Source of the DNA: Candidatus Methylomirabilota bacterium
Lineage (GTDB): Bacteria; Methylomirabilota; Methylomirabilia; Rokubacteriales; CSP1-6
Assembly: GCA_046726415.1 (NCBI GenBank)
Contig: JBKPAK010000106.1
Location: forward strand, 1-19,477
Direction: 5' to 3'
DNA length: 19,477 bases
Shown here one piece after another: positions 9,485 to 17,974 of this stretch (positions are counted from its first letter, which is position 1; each line of letters starts with the position of its first letter). The notes beneath the pieces are model-generated. The model made no database searches. It had not been told where the DNA came from and worked only from the letters and a program-made list of their open reading frames with translations. The translations under genes and the position numbers were made by a program.

Positions 9485-12400
9485 ATGCCGACCTGTGCCG
9501 GTTGCGGCTCCGAGGCCTCGTCCACATTCGCGTTCTGCCCGCGATGTGGGCGCCGGCTGCCCAGCCCTTGCGGCGCGTGTGGCTTCACGTGCGAGCCCGA
9601 CTTCGCGTTCTGTCCCCGCTGCGGGGCCGCGCGAGACCCGGGCAACGCGCCGCCCCCCGTGGCGCCGGCGGCCCCGGTCGAGCCCAGGAAAGCACCGGCC
9701 TCAGCGCGACCAGACGGCGCCGGTCGAGAGGCCGACCGCCGCCAGGTGACGGTGCTGTTCGCGGATCTCTCCGGGTTCACGGCGCTCGCCGAGCGGCTCG
9801 ATCCCGAAGACGTGCGCGCGTTCCAGGGCGCGTTGTTCGAAACGCTGGCCGGGGCAATCACGCGCTATGACGGCTTCGTCGAGAAGTTCGTGGGCGATGC
9901 CGTGCTGGCGGTCTTCGGCGCGCCGGTCGCGCACGAGGACGATCCGGCCCGCGCCTGCGACGCGGCGCTAGACATGCTCGAACGCAGCGGGACGCTGAGC
10001 GACGAGTGGGCGGGGCGCCTCGGCCAGCCCGTCACCCTCCACGTGGGAATCCACACCGGTCCCGTGGTAGCCGGGGATCTCGGCGGGGCCGCGGGCGCCG
10101 CGTACGCCGTGACGGGCGACACCGTGAATACGACGGCGCGCCTCCTCGCGGCCGCCGCCCCCGGGATCATTCTCGTGTCGGAGGCCACTCAGGCCTTCGC
10201 CCACCACCGTTTCGCGTTCGAGCCAGCGGGCGGGCTAGCGCTTCGCGGTAAGGCGGAGTCGATCGTCGCTCATCGCCTTCTCGGCGCCTTGGCCCAGCCT
10301 CGATCGGCCCGAGGGCTCACGGCGCTCGGCTTGACCGCGCCGCTCGTGGGACGGACCAGCGAGCTCGATCAGCTCCTGGCCGCGTTCGATCGGATGCAGC
10401 GCGGGCGGGCTCAGGTCGTGAGCGTCGTCGGCGAGGCGGGCACGGGCAAGTCACGGCTCATCGCCGAGCTGCTGGCGCGGCTCGACGCCGACGGACGCCT
10501 CGCCGGCACAGCCGTGCGCCGGGCCGCGTGCTCTTCCCTGGGCGAGCCGACCCACGGCCTCTTCGGCGCGCTCTTCCGGGAGGCGTACAAGGTCGATCCC
10601 GCCGACTCGCTCGACGTCGCCCGGCAGAAGCTGGCCGCCGGTCTCCGCGCGCTGGGCGCGCGGGACGAGGAGGCGGAGGCCATCGCGCCCGTCTTGAGCT
10701 ACGTACTCGGGATGGAGAAGGGCACGCGCTCCGACATCGAGCCCGAACAGCTCCAGCGCCAGATCGCGCTGGCCGCGCGCGCCCTGGTCGAGCGGCGCCT
10801 CGAGAACGAGCCCTTGATGATCCTCGTCGAGGATCTGCACTGGGCGGACGCCGCGTCGGTGGATCTGTTGCGCCACGTGGCCGATCATCTAGCTGACCGG
10901 CCGCTGATGCTTCTGCTCACGCACCGGCCCGAGACGAGGCCGCCGCTCGTGGCCCGGGCGGCGCAATCGGTCATCCAGCTCGCCCCGCTCTCCTCGGGAG
11001 AGACGCGCGAGCTGGTCTCCGGGCTGTTCGGCGCGTCGCTCGGCGAAGGCCTGGAGCATCTTCAAGAGTTCGTCGCCACCCGGGCCGGCGGCAACCCGTT
11101 CTTCGTCGAGGAGATCCTTCGAAGCCTCGTGGGCAAGGGCGTCCTCGTGCGACAGGCCGATCGGTGGGCCTGCACCACGGCGTACGAGGCGGTCGAGGTC
11201 CCGCCAACGCTCCACGGGCTGCTCCTCTCGCGCGTCGATCGGCTGCCGGCCGACGCGCGGCGGCTGCTCCAGGAGGCCGCCGTGGTCGGGGCGGTCTTCG
11301 ACGGGGCGCTCCTGCGCGCCATCGCGGCGGGCTCGGCGGCCACCGAGGCCGCGCTCGAGCGGCTGGTCGAGGCCGATCTCATCCAGGCGGTCGGGCACTG
11401 GCGCGAAGGAGGCCAGTATCGCTTCACCCACGCCCTCGTGCACGAGGTGGTCTATCAGAATCTGCTGCTGGCAAGCCGGACCGAGCTCCACGAGCGGGTC
11501 GGGCGGGCGCTCGAGCGCTCCGCCGGTCCGCGGCCCGAGCGGCTCTCCGATCTGGAAGCCCTCGGCCACCACTGGAGCCTCAGCGCGGACCGGCCCAAAG
11601 GCGCCCGCTACCTGCTGGCGGCCGGCGATTGGGCGCGCGCGGTCTACGCGAACGAGGACGCAATTCGCCACTACGAGCGCACCCTGGGGGTCCTTCGCGA
11701 GTGCCACGCCGGCGACGCCGAGCAACGCGCCGTGCGCGAGCGGCTCGCCGATCTGCGGGGGCTCACCGGCCGGCGCGCAGAGGCCCTCGCCCACTACGAG
11801 GCCTTACGCCAGGAGCTCGAGGCGGTCGGCGACCGGGGGGGCGCCGCGCGCGTGCTCCGGAAGATCGGCGGGCTCCACTGGGAGGCCGGCGACCGCGAGC
11901 GAGCGGCAGCCTGCTTCGCGGCGGGCCTCGAACTGATCGGCGAGGACGGCGACCCGATCGAACGCGGTCACCTCTTTCAGGAGATGGGGCGCCTCGCGTT
12001 TCGCGCCGGTGACAATGCGGGCGCCATCGCCTGGGCCGAGCGGGCGCTGGCGGAAGCGGGGCCCGAGGAGGAGGCCGCCGCCGAGCCCGAGCGGGTTCGC
12101 GAGGCCGCCGCGATGCGCGCGCACGCCTACAACACGCTGGGCGTCGCACTCGCCCGAACGGGGCGCCCGGCCGAGGCGGTCGGCCAGATCGAGCGCAGCA
12201 TCGCGCTGGCCGAGGCGCGCGAGCTACCGCAGGCGGCCTGTCGAGGCTACACGAACCTCGGCGTGCTCTATAGCTCGCACGATCCGCAGCGGAGCATCGA
12301 GACGTGCCTGCGCGGGCTCGAGACCGCGAAGAAGGTGGGCGACCTCGGCTTCCAGTCGCGCCTGTACGCGAATCTCGCCGTGGCCTATTGCGCGCTCACG

Positions 12401-12748
12401 GACCGGTGCGAGGCGGAGGGCGTCGAGGCTGCGCAGGCGGCCATCGACCTCGATCGGCGGCTGGGGCTGCTCGATCACCTGGCGGTCCCGCTGATCATCC
12501 TCGGCCAGATTCACCAGTGCCACGGCGAGCATGCCAAAGCGTTCGCCATGTACGAGGAGGCCCTGCGCCTGGCCGAGCAGGTCGGCGAGGCCCAGCTTCT
12601 CTTCCCATGCTACGACGGCCTGGCCACGCTCTATCTCGACGCCGGCAATCAACCCCAGGCCGAGACCTACCTCGCCAAGGCGCAGGAAGTGTGCGAGCGG
12701 GCCGGAGTCGAGCCCGACGCGCTGATGGTGCTACCCTTCCTCTGCTAG
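9485..12748 (+). CDS. Double zinc ribbon + class III adenylate/guanylate cyclase + AAA (STAND-like) ATPase + TPR protein
   Basis: Four CxxC pairs; VLFADLSGFT, EKFVGDAV, GIHTG and GDTVNTTARL; Walker A GEAGTGKS; Walker B VEDLHWAD; GGNPFFVEE; TPR-like helical repeats. TAGAAT at 9470-9475 upstream. Confidence 0.93.
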   Translation: MPTCAGCGSEASSTFAFCPRCGRRLPSPCGACGFTCEPDFAFCPRCGAARDPGNAPPPVAPAAPVEPRKAPASARPDGAGREADRRQVTVLFADLSGFTALAERLDPEDVRAFQGALFETLAGAITRYDGFVEKFVGDAVLAVFGAPVAHEDDPARACDAALDMLERSGTLSDEWAGRLGQPVTLHVGIHTGPVVAGDLGGAAGAAYAVTGDTVNTTARLLAAAAPGIILVSEATQAFAHHRFAFEPAGGLALRGKAESIVAHRLLGALAQPRSARGLTALGLTAPLVGRTSELDQLLAAFDRMQRGRAQVVSVVGEAGTGKSRLIAELLARLDADGRLAGTAVRRAACSSLGEPTHGLFGALFREAYKVDPADSLDVARQKLAAGLRALGARDEEAEAIAPVLSYVLGMEKGTRSDIEPEQLQRQIALAARALVERRLENEPLMILVEDLHWADAASVDLLRHVADHLADRPLMLLLTHRPETRPPLVARAAQSVIQLAPLSSGETRELVSGLFGASLGEGLEHLQEFVATRAGGNPFFVEEILRSLVGKGVLVRQADRWACTTAYEAVEVPPTLHGLLLSRVDRLPADARRLLQEAAVVGAVFDGALLRAIAAGSAATEAALERLVEADLIQAVGHWREGGQYRFTHALVHEVVYQNLLLASRTELHERVGRALERSAGPRPERLSDLEALGHHWSLSADRPKGARYLLAAGDWARAVYANEDAIRHYERTLGVLRECHAGDAEQRAVRERLADLRGLTGRRAEALAHYEALRQELEAVGDRGGAARVLRKIGGLHWEAGDRERAAACFAAGLELIGEDGDPIERGHLFQEMGRLAFRAGDNAGAIAWAERALAEAGPEEEAAAEPERVREAAAMRAHAYNTLGVALARTGRPAEAVGQIERSIALAEARELPQAACRGYTNLGVLYSSHDPQRSIETCLRGLETAKKVGDLGFQSRLYANLAVAYCALTDRCEAEGVEAAQAAIDLDRRLGLLDHLAVPLIILGQIHQCHGEHAKAFAMYEEALRLAEQVGEAQLLFPCYDGLATLYLDAGNQPQAETYLAKAQEVCERAGVEPDALMVLPFLC

Positions 12749-12757
12749 GAGCCTGAC

Positions 12758-13414
12758 ATGACGAACGCTGACCCGCGCCCCCCGGTGTCACCCGGCGAAC
12801 CGGCGCCCGAGTTCACCTTGCCGGCCGTGGACGGGAAAAACCAGGTGTCGCTGTCGGACTATCGGGGGCAGAGCCCGGTCTTTCTCGCTCTCCTCCTCGG
12901 GCTATGGTGCCCCTTCTGCCGACGGCAGATCGCGCACATGGGAGCCACCGAGGCGAAGCTCAAGGGGATCGGGGTGGAGTCGCTCGGGATCGTGGCCACT
13001 GCGCCGGAGAACGCCCAGCTCTACTTCAAGTTCCGCCCGACCCGCCTGCGGCTGGCCGCCGACCCCGAGCTCACCACGCACCGCGCGTATCGGCTGCCGA
13101 GGCCCGCCGCGACCCCGGAGCTCATGAACTCGCTCGAGACCACGCGAATCAATCCCAACGGCGAGTTTCCCGAGCCGCTGCCGATCGTGCAGGCCGTCGC
13201 CGCCGTCGCCAAGGCCGACGGGTACGCCCAGAACGACACCGACAGCGCCGACATGCAGCGCCAGTTCCCCCAGCTCAAGGGGCAGTTCCTGATCGACCGC
13301 GACGGCATCGTGCGCTGGGCCAACATCGAGTGCGCGACCGAGGGGCTGGCCGGTCTCGGCAAGTTCCCGTCCGACGAGGAGATCGTGGCCGCAGCGCAAA
13401 CCCTGCGACGCTGA
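12758..13414 (+). CDS. AhpC/TSA (redoxin) family protein with CxxC
   Basis: PGEPAPEFTLP, VSLSDYRG, WCPFC and FLIDRDGIVRW; starts 9 nt after the cyclase stop with an AGGAG RBS. Confidence 0.88.
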   Translation: MTNADPRPPVSPGEPAPEFTLPAVDGKNQVSLSDYRGQSPVFLALLLGLWCPFCRRQIAHMGATEAKLKGIGVESLGIVATAPENAQLYFKFRPTRLRLAADPELTTHRAYRLPRPAATPELMNSLETTRINPNGEFPEPLPIVQAVAAVAKADGYAQNDTDSADMQRQFPQLKGQFLIDRDGIVRWANIECATEGLAGLGKFPSDEEIVAAAQTLRR

Positions 13415-14538: not shown

Positions 14539-15231
14539 TTGAGCTTTCCCTTTCTCTTCAAGGACCGGGCGCACGCCAACCGCACGCTGGCGGATCCCGC
14601 CATCGCCCAAAAGATGGCCTCGCTGCTGGCGCCCAAGGGCATCGTCGGGTGCGGCCTGCTAGCCAGCGCCGACGTCCGCTACATGACGCGACCTCCGCTC
14701 CGCAGGCTTGCGGACTTCGAGGGCAAGAAGCTGCGGATCAACGGCACCGACGCGGAGCGGGAGCGCTTCCGGAGACTCGGGGCGACATCCATTGCCATGA
14801 ATCTCCCCGACATGCTCACTGCGCTGCAGAACCGGACGATCGACGGGTCGGGAAGCGGCATGTCGATCTGGATCAACTTCAACCTCGAGACCATTTCCAA
14901 GGACCTGCTGCAGACAGAGGACACGCTGATCGTGTCCTATTGCGCGCTGAGCAAGCGATGGCTCGACACACTGCCGGGGGACCTGCGGGAGATGGTCATC
15001 ACCGAGAGCCGGGCCATCTACCCGCGGGGCGTCAAGATCTCCGACGAGTTCATGGCCAGCCTGACCAAGAAGTGGGAAGACCGGGGCGGAAAGATCAACC
15101 GCCTGTCCGACGGCGAGATGAAAGTGGTACGGGACAAGTTCGCCACCGTCGGCACGACCATCACGGAGGGCAAGCCCGAGTTGCGGGCGGCCTACAACGA
15201 GTTGCGGGCAGCCAGCGAAAGAACCCCGTAG
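14539..15231 (+). pseudogene. dctP: TRAP transporter substrate-binding protein (DctP family), 5'-truncated
   Basis: PFLFKD..HA, LADFEGKKLRI, LGA..IAM...LQNRTIDG and KRWLDTLPGDLR. No signal peptide, no RBS and no dctQM nearby. Confidence 0.8.
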
Positions 15232-15853: not shown

Positions 15854-16118
15854 GGCGATTCCTCCGACTGCGCGTTGGGGTCATCGCTAGGCCAGGCCGG
15901 GACCCGGCCCACAACGTCCAGGGCTGACTACCGGCCCGCCGATTTGCCACCAGGCCCACCGGGTATCACCGCGATGATTGTCTGTCAAGGCACAGCCCGA
16001 CGAGTCTTGCTCGCGCGCCCACCTGGGGAGCCGGCTGGCCCGGAGCCCTTCGCCGAGCGCAGCCGCCCCCGCCGGTTACCCGGCTCCCGTCACGATCGCC
16101 GGCACCTCGCGGCTTTGA

Positions 16119-16314
16119 TTCATCATTGACCATCTGGGCATCATGCAGCCCCGCACGCCGCCGGCCCCGCCGCAGCCCTTGGGCCGACCTGCCGAAGGTG
16201 CTGGACCTCGCCAAGCGCTCGAACGTGGTGATCAAGGTCAGCGGCGCCTGCACGCTGTCCCGGGAACCGTATCCGTTCCCGGACATCTGGGACCCGCTCG
16301 CCCGCGTGTTCGAC
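16119..16314 (+). pseudogene. Internal fragment of an amidohydrolase_2 family (lactonase-like) gene, frameshifted
   Basis: FIIDHLGIMQP...PPQP, a 1-nt shift at ~16178, then WADLPKVLDLAKRSNVVIKVSG...PYPFPDIWDPLARVFD. Confidence 0.72.
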
Positions 16315-16605
16315 ACTTCGATCTCGGCTGGATGGAAAGGATGAAGCGTAGCCACGCGGGGCCTCCTGGAGACCTTCGGCATCGACGCGTCCGGCGCCAG
16401 ACGACCGGAGGAAACACTAGTCGCGCCGCTGAGGAACTCGCCGCCGCGTCCCGGCGTCGAAGATCGGTGCTGCCGGACGCTTCGATCATCGTCGAAGTGC
16501 TCATCGACGCGTCAGACCGTTTCGCATGTAAGAATCGCGGCTATGATTCTCCGGTCCTCATGATGGAAATCAGAACACAGGGTGTGCCGTCTGCAGGAGG
16601 TGGCC

Positions 16606-17160
16606 ATGCTGGAGGGGAAAACGCGCATCCCGCCCGTCGACGTCGAGACGCTTCCGGACGACCTGCGCGAAACGCTCGAGGAACAGCGCGAGCTCCGGGG
16701 CGCGCCGCTCTATCCCTACCTTTTCTACGCGCGCAACCCGGCGTACTTCCGCGCCGCGAAGGCGATGTGGGCCGCGCTCCAACAAGAGACTAAGCGCGTG
16801 CCCGTGACACTCCGGGCGCTGCTCAATCGGCGCGTGGCCTCGTGGAACGGCTGCGAGTTCTGACAGGACGTCAATGCTGCCGTGGGCAGCAGGAACGGCA
16901 TCTCGACGGAGAAGATCGAGGCGCTCACCGACTATGCGAAGAGCCCGCTCTTCAGTGACGCGGAGAAGGTCGCGCTCGAATACGCCGACGCGATCACGGA
17001 CACGAGCCGCGACGTCGACGACGAGCTGTTCGCGCGCATGCAACGGCACTACGACGACGACACCATCGCGGAGCTGACGATGATCATCGCGTGGGAGAAC
17101 GCGTCCTCGCGCTTCAACCGGGCGTTCCGCATCCCATCGCAAGGGTTCTGGAAGCCATGA
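16606..17160 (+). CDS. Carboxymuconolactone decarboxylase/AhpD-like protein, predicted selenoprotein (184 aa, C83-x-x-U86)
   Basis: AGGAGGT RBS and ATG at 16606. RRVASWNGCEF-TGA-QDVNAAVG continues in frame into LFSDAEKVALEYADAIT...ELTMIIAWENASSRFNRAF. The UGA occupies the second Cys position of the CMD NGCxxC motif. Confidence 0.85.
16875..16891 (+). promoter_or_regulatory. Candidate bacterial SECIS hairpin
   Basis: TGCTGCC-GTG-GGCAGCA, a perfect 7-bp stem with a G-first apical loop, separated from the UGA at 16861-16863 by 11 nt. Confidence 0.7.
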
Positions 17161-17200: not shown

Positions 17201-17974
17201 ATGGCCCGCTTCGGAGGATTTCGACCCGCGGCGTTCCGCTTCCTGCGCGATCTGGAGCGGAACAACGCGAAAGCCTGGTTCGAGGCCAACCGCAACGTCT
17301 ACGAGCGAGAGGTGCGGGAGCCGATGCGCCTGCTCGTCGAGACTCTCGACGCCACGCTGGGCTCCATCGCGCCCGAGATCGTGGGTGACCCGAAGCGCTC
17401 GATGTTCCGGATCCACCGCGACGTCCGCTTCTCCAAGAACAAGTCGCCGTACAAGACCAACGCCGGCGCCTGGCTCTATCATCGCGATGCCGGGCGCAAG
17501 GTGGGCACCGTGGGCGAGGGCGGGGGAGCGGGATTCTACTTTCACATCGACCCCACCACCTGTTTCATGGCCGGCGGCATGTGGATGCCTGCCCGGCCCG
17601 CGCTCCTGCGCATCCGCGAGGCCATCGCCGCCCAGCCCACCGCTCTGGCGCGGCTCACGAGCGCACCGGGATTCCGGCGGCGCTTCGGCGGCCTGAGCGA
17701 GGAAGCGAAGCTTCGCCGGGTTCCCCGAGAATTCCCGACCGACCATCCCGCGGCCGAGTGGCTGAAGCTCCAGTCGTTCACGGCTCGAGCCTCGATCGAG
17801 CCGAGCGTGGTCACGAGCCCGCGCTTGGTCGATCGCCTGTGCCGGGACTTCGAGCTTCTGGTGCCCCTGGTGCGCTGGCTCAATCGCGCGCTCGGCTACC
17901 AGCCGGCGAAGGCAGGGAGGTCGGACATGACGCGACGTACGACACCGCGGCGGACGAAATCGCGCGAACGCTAG
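17201..17974 (+). CDS. DUF2461 family protein (TIGR02453-like)
   Basis: FLRDLERNNAKAWFEANR, FRIHRDVRFSKNKSPYKT, GFYFHI, GGMW and LKLQSF. The last ~20 aa may be a read-through extension. Confidence 0.9.
   Translation: MARFGGFRPAAFRFLRDLERNNAKAWFEANRNVYEREVREPMRLLVETLDATLGSIAPEIVGDPKRSMFRIHRDVRFSKNKSPYKTNAGAWLYHRDAGRKVGTVGEGGGAGFYFHIDPTTCFMAGGMWMPARPALLRIREAIAAQPTALARLTSAPGFRRRFGGLSEEAKLRRVPREFPTDHPAAEWLKLQSFTARASIEPSVVTSPRLVDRLCRDFELLVPLVRWLNRALGYQPAKAGRSDMTRRTTPRRTKSRER

Follow-up and report, generated by a model that had tools for sequence, protein, structure and literature searches.

Does a lone TGA codon divide this locus into two short genes, or is it read as an amino acid within one? 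The question is raised by a 19,477-nucleotide stretch of DNA (the window; contig JBKPAK010000106.1, here C106, in full) from a Rokubacteria/Methylomirabilota metagenome-assembled genome (MAG) of 7.6 Mb in 352 contigs, with an estimated completeness of ~98%. Two open reading frames (ORFs), at 16582–16863 and 16882–17160, share a common frame and are separated by a single TGA at 16861–16863, in the context N-G-C-E-F-*-Q-D-V-N. We conclude that this codon very probably encodes selenocysteine (Sec, U), and that the two ORFs form one intact gene for a selenoprotein of known type. The gene is intact, its UGA is conserved, the hairpin that follows is conserved and covaries, the genome contains the Sec machinery, and the protein has the fold of the carboxymuconolactone decarboxylase (CMD)/AhpD group with the UGA in register with the redox motif. 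The initial annotation of the locus had proposed the gene of a 184-residue Sec-dependent enzyme; the machinery, the conservation, the alternation with Cys and the variation of the hairpin all support that reading.

Translation from the ATG at 16606 with TGA = U gives 184 residues with no other stop until a second TGA at 17158–17160, and bears out the original observation of two same-frame ORFs split by one TGA. The motif is C83-E-F-U86, so that the TGA occupies the place of the second Cys of C-x-x-C. The features of the gene are as follows.

16595–16600, + strand: Shine-Dalgarno-like AGGAGG, 5 nt upstream of the ATG (direct reading of the sequence)
16606–17160, + strand: complete coding sequence of a predicted 184-residue YciW-related selenoprotein of CMD/AhpD fold, including the terminal TGA (PF02627, NF053654, structural model, Foldseek)
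16852–16854, + strand: codon of Cys83, first residue of C-x-x-U (invariant in alignment A3; opposite Cys48 of PA0269)
16861–16863, + strand: in-frame TGA, predicted Sec codon U86 (conserved in orthologs; opposite Cys51 of PA0269)
16873–16875, + strand: codon of Asn90, at +4 from Sec, the position of the proton-relay His of AhpD (opposite His55 of PA0269)
16875–16891, + strand: hairpin resembling a selenocysteine insertion sequence (SECIS), with a 7-bp stem, core 16876–16881/16885–16890 and apical loop GUG at 16882–16884 (folding and comparison)
17158–17160, + strand: true stop TGA (TGA, TAA or TAG in orthologs; downstream sequence diverges)

Conservation of the UGA codon

We searched 159 genomes of the same family with a threshold of E ≤ 1e-20, and found a relative of the window protein in 127 of them. 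Among the matches listed, each that spans residue 86 holds exactly one TGA; the only two stop-free rows are contig-end fragments that start after residue 86. Sorted by their identity to the window protein, the relatives form three groups, of 86–97% (the orthologs), 57–61% and 37–46%, and the genome of the window carries one gene of each group, on contigs C106, C161 and C57 respectively.

The window locus and 29 orthologous ones, 30 in total, all have TGA at codon 86, and the frame is otherwise open in every one. The terminal stop of the same genes provides an internal control. It is TGA in 27, TAA in two and TAG in one, so ordinary stop codons are interchangeable at that site, whereas codon 86 is never TAA or TAG. 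The start site is also common to all 30, of which 29 begin MLEG, MLQG or MLDG and one (L045) begins VLEG from a GTG codon. The gene had been described at the outset as otherwise undamaged and preceded by a strong ribosome binding site; the AGGAGG is present, and the open frames of the orthologs agree with this.

The comparison was extended to public species genomes, where 547 stretches matched and 515 of these encode a relative. The best 80 of the 515 were kept and 78 were parsed, no motif having been found in L141 and L143. Separately from these, L088, a contig-end fragment with a misread motif, was left out. Codon 86 is TGA in 72 of the 78 and TGT or TGC in six (L126, L129, L131, L140, L144 and L146), from records titled Bradyrhizobium, Rhizobium, Alphaproteobacteria or Rhodoblastus. 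The public and family-level sets overlap in genomes, and were reduced to 100 distinct 57-nt segments, comprising 94 with TGA and six with a Cys codon. At the protein level, Cys stands at the Sec position in 90 of 99 database proteins with a parsable motif, 21 of the 120 having been left out as fragments or frameshifted calls. A TGA peculiar to this gene among relatives that all encode Cys had been named in the initial annotation as one finding that would overturn it. Instead TGA predominates, and Cys and UGA alternate at exactly codon 86.

These data bear directly on the possibility that the gene is a pseudogene created by a nonsense mutation, or that the TGA is an error of sequencing or assembly. 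Gene-poor stretches and an N-terminally incomplete DctP ORF adjoin the locus, and gene callers give two ORFs, as would be expected of a broken gene. Yet the same TGA is found in all 30 orthologs, which come from independent assemblies and have neither another stop nor a frameshift, and in the large majority of the parsed public relatives, where it is never replaced by TAA or TAG as the real stop is. Homologues have Cys at exactly this site. Nucleotide identities of 86–97% between the orthologs also argue against a single clonal contaminant. We therefore give a pseudogene or an error practically no credence.

Two observations on the sampled relatives may be added. Seven loci with TGA-bearing orthologs, 85–93% identical to the window protein (L093, L104, L108, L115, L123, L124 and L128), lie in MAGs titled Betaproteobacteria, Pseudomonadales, Nitrosotalea (an archaeon), Thermoleophilaceae, Verrucomicrobiia and Actinomycetes. 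Mis-binned Rokubacteria contigs are the likeliest explanation; the alternative is gene transfer. Three 180-residue full-length relatives of the C57 paralogue (P0122, P0123 and P0124) carry G, S or L where Sec would be, as in C-P-F-G-I-D.

The SECIS-like hairpin and the selenocysteine machinery

The hairpin UGCUGCC-GUG-GGCAGCA lies at 16875–16891, 11 nt past the TGA, and its conserved core of 6 bp at 16876–16890. The bare 21-nt hairpin has a folding energy of −11.3 kcal/mol (z = −2.89; 2 of 200 shuffles as good). Taken as 40 nt from the UGA the value is −14.8 kcal/mol (z = −1.98; 9 of 200), and in a 71-nt context z = −2.07 (5 of 200).

In all 30 orthologs the core GCUGCC-GUN-GGCAGC is invariant, including the synonymous third positions of the codons GCT, GCC, GGC and AGC. 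The third base of the loop, a wobble position, is G in 25, C in four and T in one. The seventh pair, T16875–A16891, is not conserved (T 25 and C 5 on one side, A 18 and C 12 on the other). The perfect 7-bp hairpin with a GUG loop that had been noted 11 nt after the TGA is thus present in the window, but only its inner 6 bp are maintained. The two closer groups together comprise 74 distinct segments; the four synonymous sites of the stem are unchanged in 74, 70, 71 and 74 of them, and the three changes at the GGC site yield G-U pairs. Outside the stem, comparable sites vary freely, and the GGN codon at column 45, for instance, has C in 42, T in 11, G in 15 and A in six.

The 94 distinct TGA segments reveal which parts of the stem can change. 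Their base pairs were counted by script, because the MAFFT alignment A2 set 3-nt and 4-nt loops without gaps and so shifted one arm. Pairs 1, 2 and 5 are constant. Pair 3 is U-A in 74 and A-U in 20, while pair 4 is G-C in 71, U-A in 20 and G-U in three; pair 6 is mismatched in 18, which merely widens the loop. The loops are GUG (59), GUC (14), GUU (1), CGUG (11), CGGG (8) and AGGG (1), always with a G in the first two positions. A G among the first bases of the apical loop is a feature described for bacterial SECIS elements in the section of the Sargasso Sea study drawn on here (PMC1088965).

The A-U form of pair 3 and the U-A form of pair 4 correspond to the 40%-identity paralogue group, which has a 6-bp hairpin GCAUCC-CG(G/U)G-GGAUGC at an unchanged offset in 20 of 20 loci. 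Relative to the group of the window, both partners differ in two of the pairs, where A-U stands for U-A and U-A for G-C. The 20 changed rows encode NASRGM rather than NAAVGS, so the hairpin has been retained across a change of amino acid sequence. Covariation in the hairpin, proposed at the outset as a check, is therefore found, in the form of structure-preserving changes that include two compensatory pairs between paralogue groups.

The six genes with a Cys codon also retain parts of the stem. L126, L131 and L140 keep six of six pairs, and their loop reads AAG rather than GUG (hairpin at locus positions 1765–1779), while L129 keeps five, L144 three and L146 two. Given the decay to three and two pairs, we read the complete stems as remnants, and these Bradyrhizobium-type Cys genes look like carriers of a fossil, decaying SECIS.

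All four components of the Sec pathway for which a search of the genome had been suggested, selA, selB, selD and tRNA-Sec, score above their curated cut-offs. The tRNA-Sec has 71 bits against a cut-off of 47, and is identified by ARAGORN as tRNA-SeC with anticodon tca. Neither selA (592 bits, cut-off 268) nor selB (374 bits, cut-off 242) has an internal stop, and the three genes form one cluster on contig C313 (28622–32915, − strand). The selD gene (C223:11994–12938, + strand; 336 bits, cut-off 125) has an in-frame TGA of its own, in S-C-A-G-*-A-S-K, followed after a 13-nt spacer by an 8-bp stem with a GAUC loop, similar to the hairpin of the window gene. It is thus itself a selenoprotein candidate.

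Might the UGA instead be read as Trp, Gly or Cys, through a changed genetic code or near-cognate suppression, with no Sec involved? Nine of the 99 motif-bearing public calls have W at this codon (P0002, P0003 and the distant P0107–P0121 set), and W is what a gene caller using code 4 or 25 would print. Because these calls continue beyond the genuine stop and end in C-terminal tails of unrelated sequence, they are marked as artefacts of code 4. The gene itself normally terminates at TGA, a codon that some orthologs replace by TAA or TAG, and selA and selB lack internal stops. The site aligns with a redox Cys rather than with Trp or Gly, the hairpin is conserved, and the Sec system of the genome is complete. 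Decoding as a standard amino acid is therefore very improbable.

We propose that UGA86 would be decoded by Sec-tRNA(Sec) during translation. SelB would deliver the charged tRNA, recruited by the mRNA hairpin that starts 11–12 nt downstream, with its GC-rich stem of 6 bp and G-U at the beginning of the loop. The second UGA, at 17158, has no such hairpin and would end translation.

The active site and Sec/Cys switches

The protein matches the CMD domain PF02627 with 40.2 bits (gathering cut-off 23). The best NCBIfam match is NF053654, which aligns residues 6–183 to positions 2–178 of the 179 in the profile with E = 1.8e-71. The score for TIGR00778, the AhpD core domain, is 13.9 bits, below the cut-off of 27.8. 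An AlphaFold model computed from a 32-row alignment has nine helices, with a mean predicted local distance difference test (pLDDT) value of 92.4 and a predicted template modelling (pTM) score of 0.88. In Foldseek its best match is 2prr, described as 'AhpD core, uncharacterized peroxidase-related protein', with a template modelling (TM) score of 0.87. Further matches are the Deinococcus radiodurans AhpD (0.85), the debrominase Bmp8 (6ohi, 0.82), PA0269 (0.71 over 141 columns), 2pfx and 3c1l. Sequence and profile searches of the PDB return the same set, with E = 2e-18 for Bmp8 in the profile search.

The HMMER alignment to PA0269 places C83 opposite Cys48, F85 opposite Tyr50, U86 opposite Cys51, N90 opposite His55 and Ala71 opposite Glu36. 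This puts Sec in the place of the second redox-motif Cys. These five residues of PA0269 make up its proton relay, and those of Mycobacterium tuberculosis AhpD are Glu118, Cys130, His132, Cys133 and His137, according to the portion of the structural paper used (PMC3141380). Where AhpD proper has C-x-x-C, a His at +4 and an upstream Glu, the window protein has C-x-x-U, Asn90 and Ala71. The initial annotation had pointed to an Asn at the His position of CxxCxxxH, and N90 is indeed opposite His55.

In the protein, Sec86 would replace the second Cys of AhpD and pair with Cys83 as a selenenylsulfide redox couple. Judged by fold and motif, the enzyme would most likely reduce a partner of peroxiredoxin type, or else hydroperoxides or disulfides.

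A number of points weigh against this overall interpretation. The folding energy of the hairpin is just mildly unusual for such GC-rich DNA (z about −2 over 40 nt), and that of the C57 paralogue is still less so (z = −0.72; 48 of 200 shuffles as good), so that the case for a SECIS rests on the comparison of relatives. That covariation is thin, amounting to one split between paralogue groups, and the three pairs that never vary are uninformative. The stem also follows in part from the encoded peptide, as the complete stems of L126, L131 and L140 in Cys genes illustrate. In the protein, NF053654 gives 239.6 bits against an equivalog cut-off of 310, and TIGR01926 gives 44.7 bits over residues 7–175 against a cut-off of 81.8. 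The ionisable residues of the relay, Glu, Tyr or His, and His, are replaced by Ala71, Phe85 and Asn90, and hence a mechanism of AhpD type cannot simply be assumed. We found no conserved operon partner in the 29 ortholog loci of about ±1.5 kb. Finally, the actual insertion of Sec, the redox role and the substrate are inferred.

Against NF053654, the database protein P0110, from the set of roughly 60% identity, scores 322.4 bits and passes, while the paralogues on C161 and C57 score 290.6 and 157.8. Since this set of roughly 60% identity underlies the model and the window protein scores below its cut-off, the sequence scores place the window gene in a sister clade of the curated family that this model does not capture.

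Sec might also be encoded in an enzyme that is not a peroxiredoxin reductase of AhpD type, but acts for example in dehalogenation, as Bmp8 does, or in the handling of sulfur or selenium metabolites. The latter role has been proposed for E. coli YciW. Bmp8 is among the closest solved structures, the relay positions are non-ionisable, the gene has no peroxiredoxin gene next to it (an AhpC/TSA ORF 3.2 kb upstream being the nearest), and the neighbours tested (DUF2461, VOC and CoA-transferase) are not conserved in the ortholog loci. Against this, the model superposes best on 2prr, a 'peroxidase-related' AhpD-core protein, and the register of C-x-x-C/U is AhpD-like. Sec has a low pKa, which could make the relay unnecessary while leaving the reaction unchanged. 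We consider a different substrate class unlikely, and retain thiol- or peroxide-directed redox chemistry as the expected activity.

How closely is the loss of the relay tied to Sec? Among 189 distinct proteins (106 Sec and 83 Cys forms), 103 of the 106 Sec forms have Phe at −1 and lack His at +4. Of the Cys forms 80 have His at +4, and 77 combine it with Tyr at −1. The exceptions are three Cys/Phe/His, two Sec/Phe/His, two Cys/Tyr/Pro, one Sec/Tyr/Asn and one Cys/Phe/Asn. A FastTree phylogeny calculated with the three trait columns removed, and without inference of a root, requires just three changes between Sec and Cys. The Cys lineages, an 80-member clade (support 95), the pair P0085/P0087 and P0158, are nested among Sec forms, and all three have His.

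It is possible, though we put it forward only tentatively, that in the YciW-related clade Sec is the older state, and that the Cys forms are secondary conversions, each of which re-installed the relay His at +4, the largest lineage also gaining Tyr at −1. The decaying SECIS stems held by Cys genes support the direction from Sec to Cys. Against this stand the small number of switches and the retention of His at +4 by two Sec-containing CMD paralogues. In addition, a sign test for the link between Asn and His has a median p of 0.5 and cannot reach significance because there are so few independent pairs. For the Tyr/Phe trait, independent pairs on the tree show no difference between Sec and Cys forms. 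If Sec is indeed the older state, natural Sec/Asn and Cys/His pairs would show that Sec makes the relay dispensable, and would offer a ready-made system for measuring what Sec buys an enzyme of AhpD type.

The paralogues just mentioned come from the same genome, which has 22 CMD-domain matches. Six contain an in-frame TGA at C-x-x-U, namely the window gene and C193:25905–26141 (+), C15:61374–61580 (−), C226:10157–10291 (−), C57:14338–14841 (+) and C161:75–608 (+). Each of these five other ORFs has a hairpin 13–17 nt after the TGA, which brings the candidate selenoproteins of the CMD family in this genome to six. C193:25905 and C226:10157 are of the form C-x-Y-U-x-x-x-H, with Tyr at −1 and His at +4, while C15:61374 has His at +3.

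A general rule that Sec removes the need for His was considered, and is ruled out by the His at +4 in C193:25905 and C226:10157. Since these Sec-containing paralogues keep it, the alignments suggest that loss of His is permitted by Sec but not required. The hint of different chemistry that had been attached to Asn90 stands in so far as Asn tracks Sec within the clade; it was overstated in that three switches are few and Sec paralogues retain His.

Neighbouring genes, annotation and relation to known selenoproteins

A DUF2461 gene (17201–17974 in the window) follows the gene in four of the 29 ortholog loci. The CoA-transferase is found in one of them, and the VOC protein, the DctP fragment and the 16126 fragment in none. 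An AhpC/TSA (peroxiredoxin) ORF on the same strand at 12758–13414 (+), 3.2 kb upstream, might encode a redox partner. The DctP-family ORF at 14539–15231 (+) matches positions 75–278 of a 286-position profile, so that the first ~74 are missing, and the 0.7-kb stretch 15860–16600, just upstream of the gene, has no ORF with a Pfam match. Both may correspond to the neighbouring pseudogenes mentioned in the initial annotation. A 1087-residue ORF at 9485–12748 (+) combines a double zinc ribbon, an adenylate/guanylate cyclase domain, an AAA ATPase domain and tetratricopeptide (TPR) repeats.

The expectation that annotation pipelines would mishandle such genes has proved correct. In the 40%-identity group, C-terminal halves of 99–105 residues that start M-D-(I/L)-N-A-S account for 112 of the 120 database proteins listed; NCBI names one of these records 'carboxymuconolactone decarboxylase family protein'. 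The Sec forms of the window's own group are represented in the database solely by P0002 and P0003, in which the site is called as W and the protein continues beyond the true stop. The practical consequence is a correction of annotation, because this gene and its relatives are stored publicly as half-length 'CMD family' or 'hypothetical' fragments, and the selenoproteome of the Rokubacteria/Methylomirabilota is therefore undercounted. The scientific value is modest. The clade offers Sec/Asn and Cys/His versions of an enzyme that are about 80–90% identical, and these are suited to a direct comparison of Sec and Cys in an active site of AhpD type.

The type of selenoprotein is already known, and the novelty is low. 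In the passages available to us, the 2005 Sargasso Sea study describes a CxxU 'AhpD-like protein' of COG2128 with 27 sequences and a 'CMD domain-containing protein' (PF02627) with four (PMC1088965), and a study of 2008 lists 'AhpD-like 1' with 299 sequences and 'AhpD-like 2' with 70 (PMC2398784). The novelty originally claimed for the window gene was thus overstated. As excerpted, a 2026 review includes both families, with 'AhpD-like protein' under TIGR01926, and reports a Methylomirabilota MAG with 63 predicted selenoprotein genes, crediting the phylum with the largest predicted bacterial selenoproteome (PMC13188914). A database paper, in the part consulted, uses the AhpD-like family as its browsing example (PMC13326102). 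No experimental characterisation of an AhpD-like selenoprotein turned up in the portions of the literature examined, in which no search was aimed at one.

Compared by their published descriptions, as far as these were available, the window protein and the AhpD-like CxxU selenoproteins have in common a CMD/AhpD fold, Sec as the second residue of C-x-x-U, homologues with Cys and a hairpin with a G-containing loop past the UGA. They differ in that the window protein scores below the TIGR01926 cut-off, and in coming from soil and groundwater Rokubacteria rather than marine metagenomes. The CMD domain-containing selenoprotein ('AhpD-like 2') is likewise similar, in scoring above the PF02627 cut-off and having CxxU, although in the description seen that family is defined by domain and motif only. 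The nearest relation is to NF053654, 'GroundWater_YciW: YciW-related (seleno)protein', which is matched over its full length and shares the motif NGCEF-U-QD-x-N-AAVGS. The hairpin sequence of the window gene is that of the roughly 60%-identical, NF053654-type paralogue group, yet unlike P0110 the protein falls below the 310-bit cut-off. PA0269 (2o4d, 2ijc and 7xw1) has the helix-turn-helix redox motif in the same register, and is shorter at the N-terminus by ~40 residues, an extension that the window protein shares with 2prr. Both PA0269 and M. tuberculosis AhpD are Cys-based, whereas the window protein would have Sec in place of the second Cys, together with Ala71, Phe85 and Asn90 at the positions of the relay.

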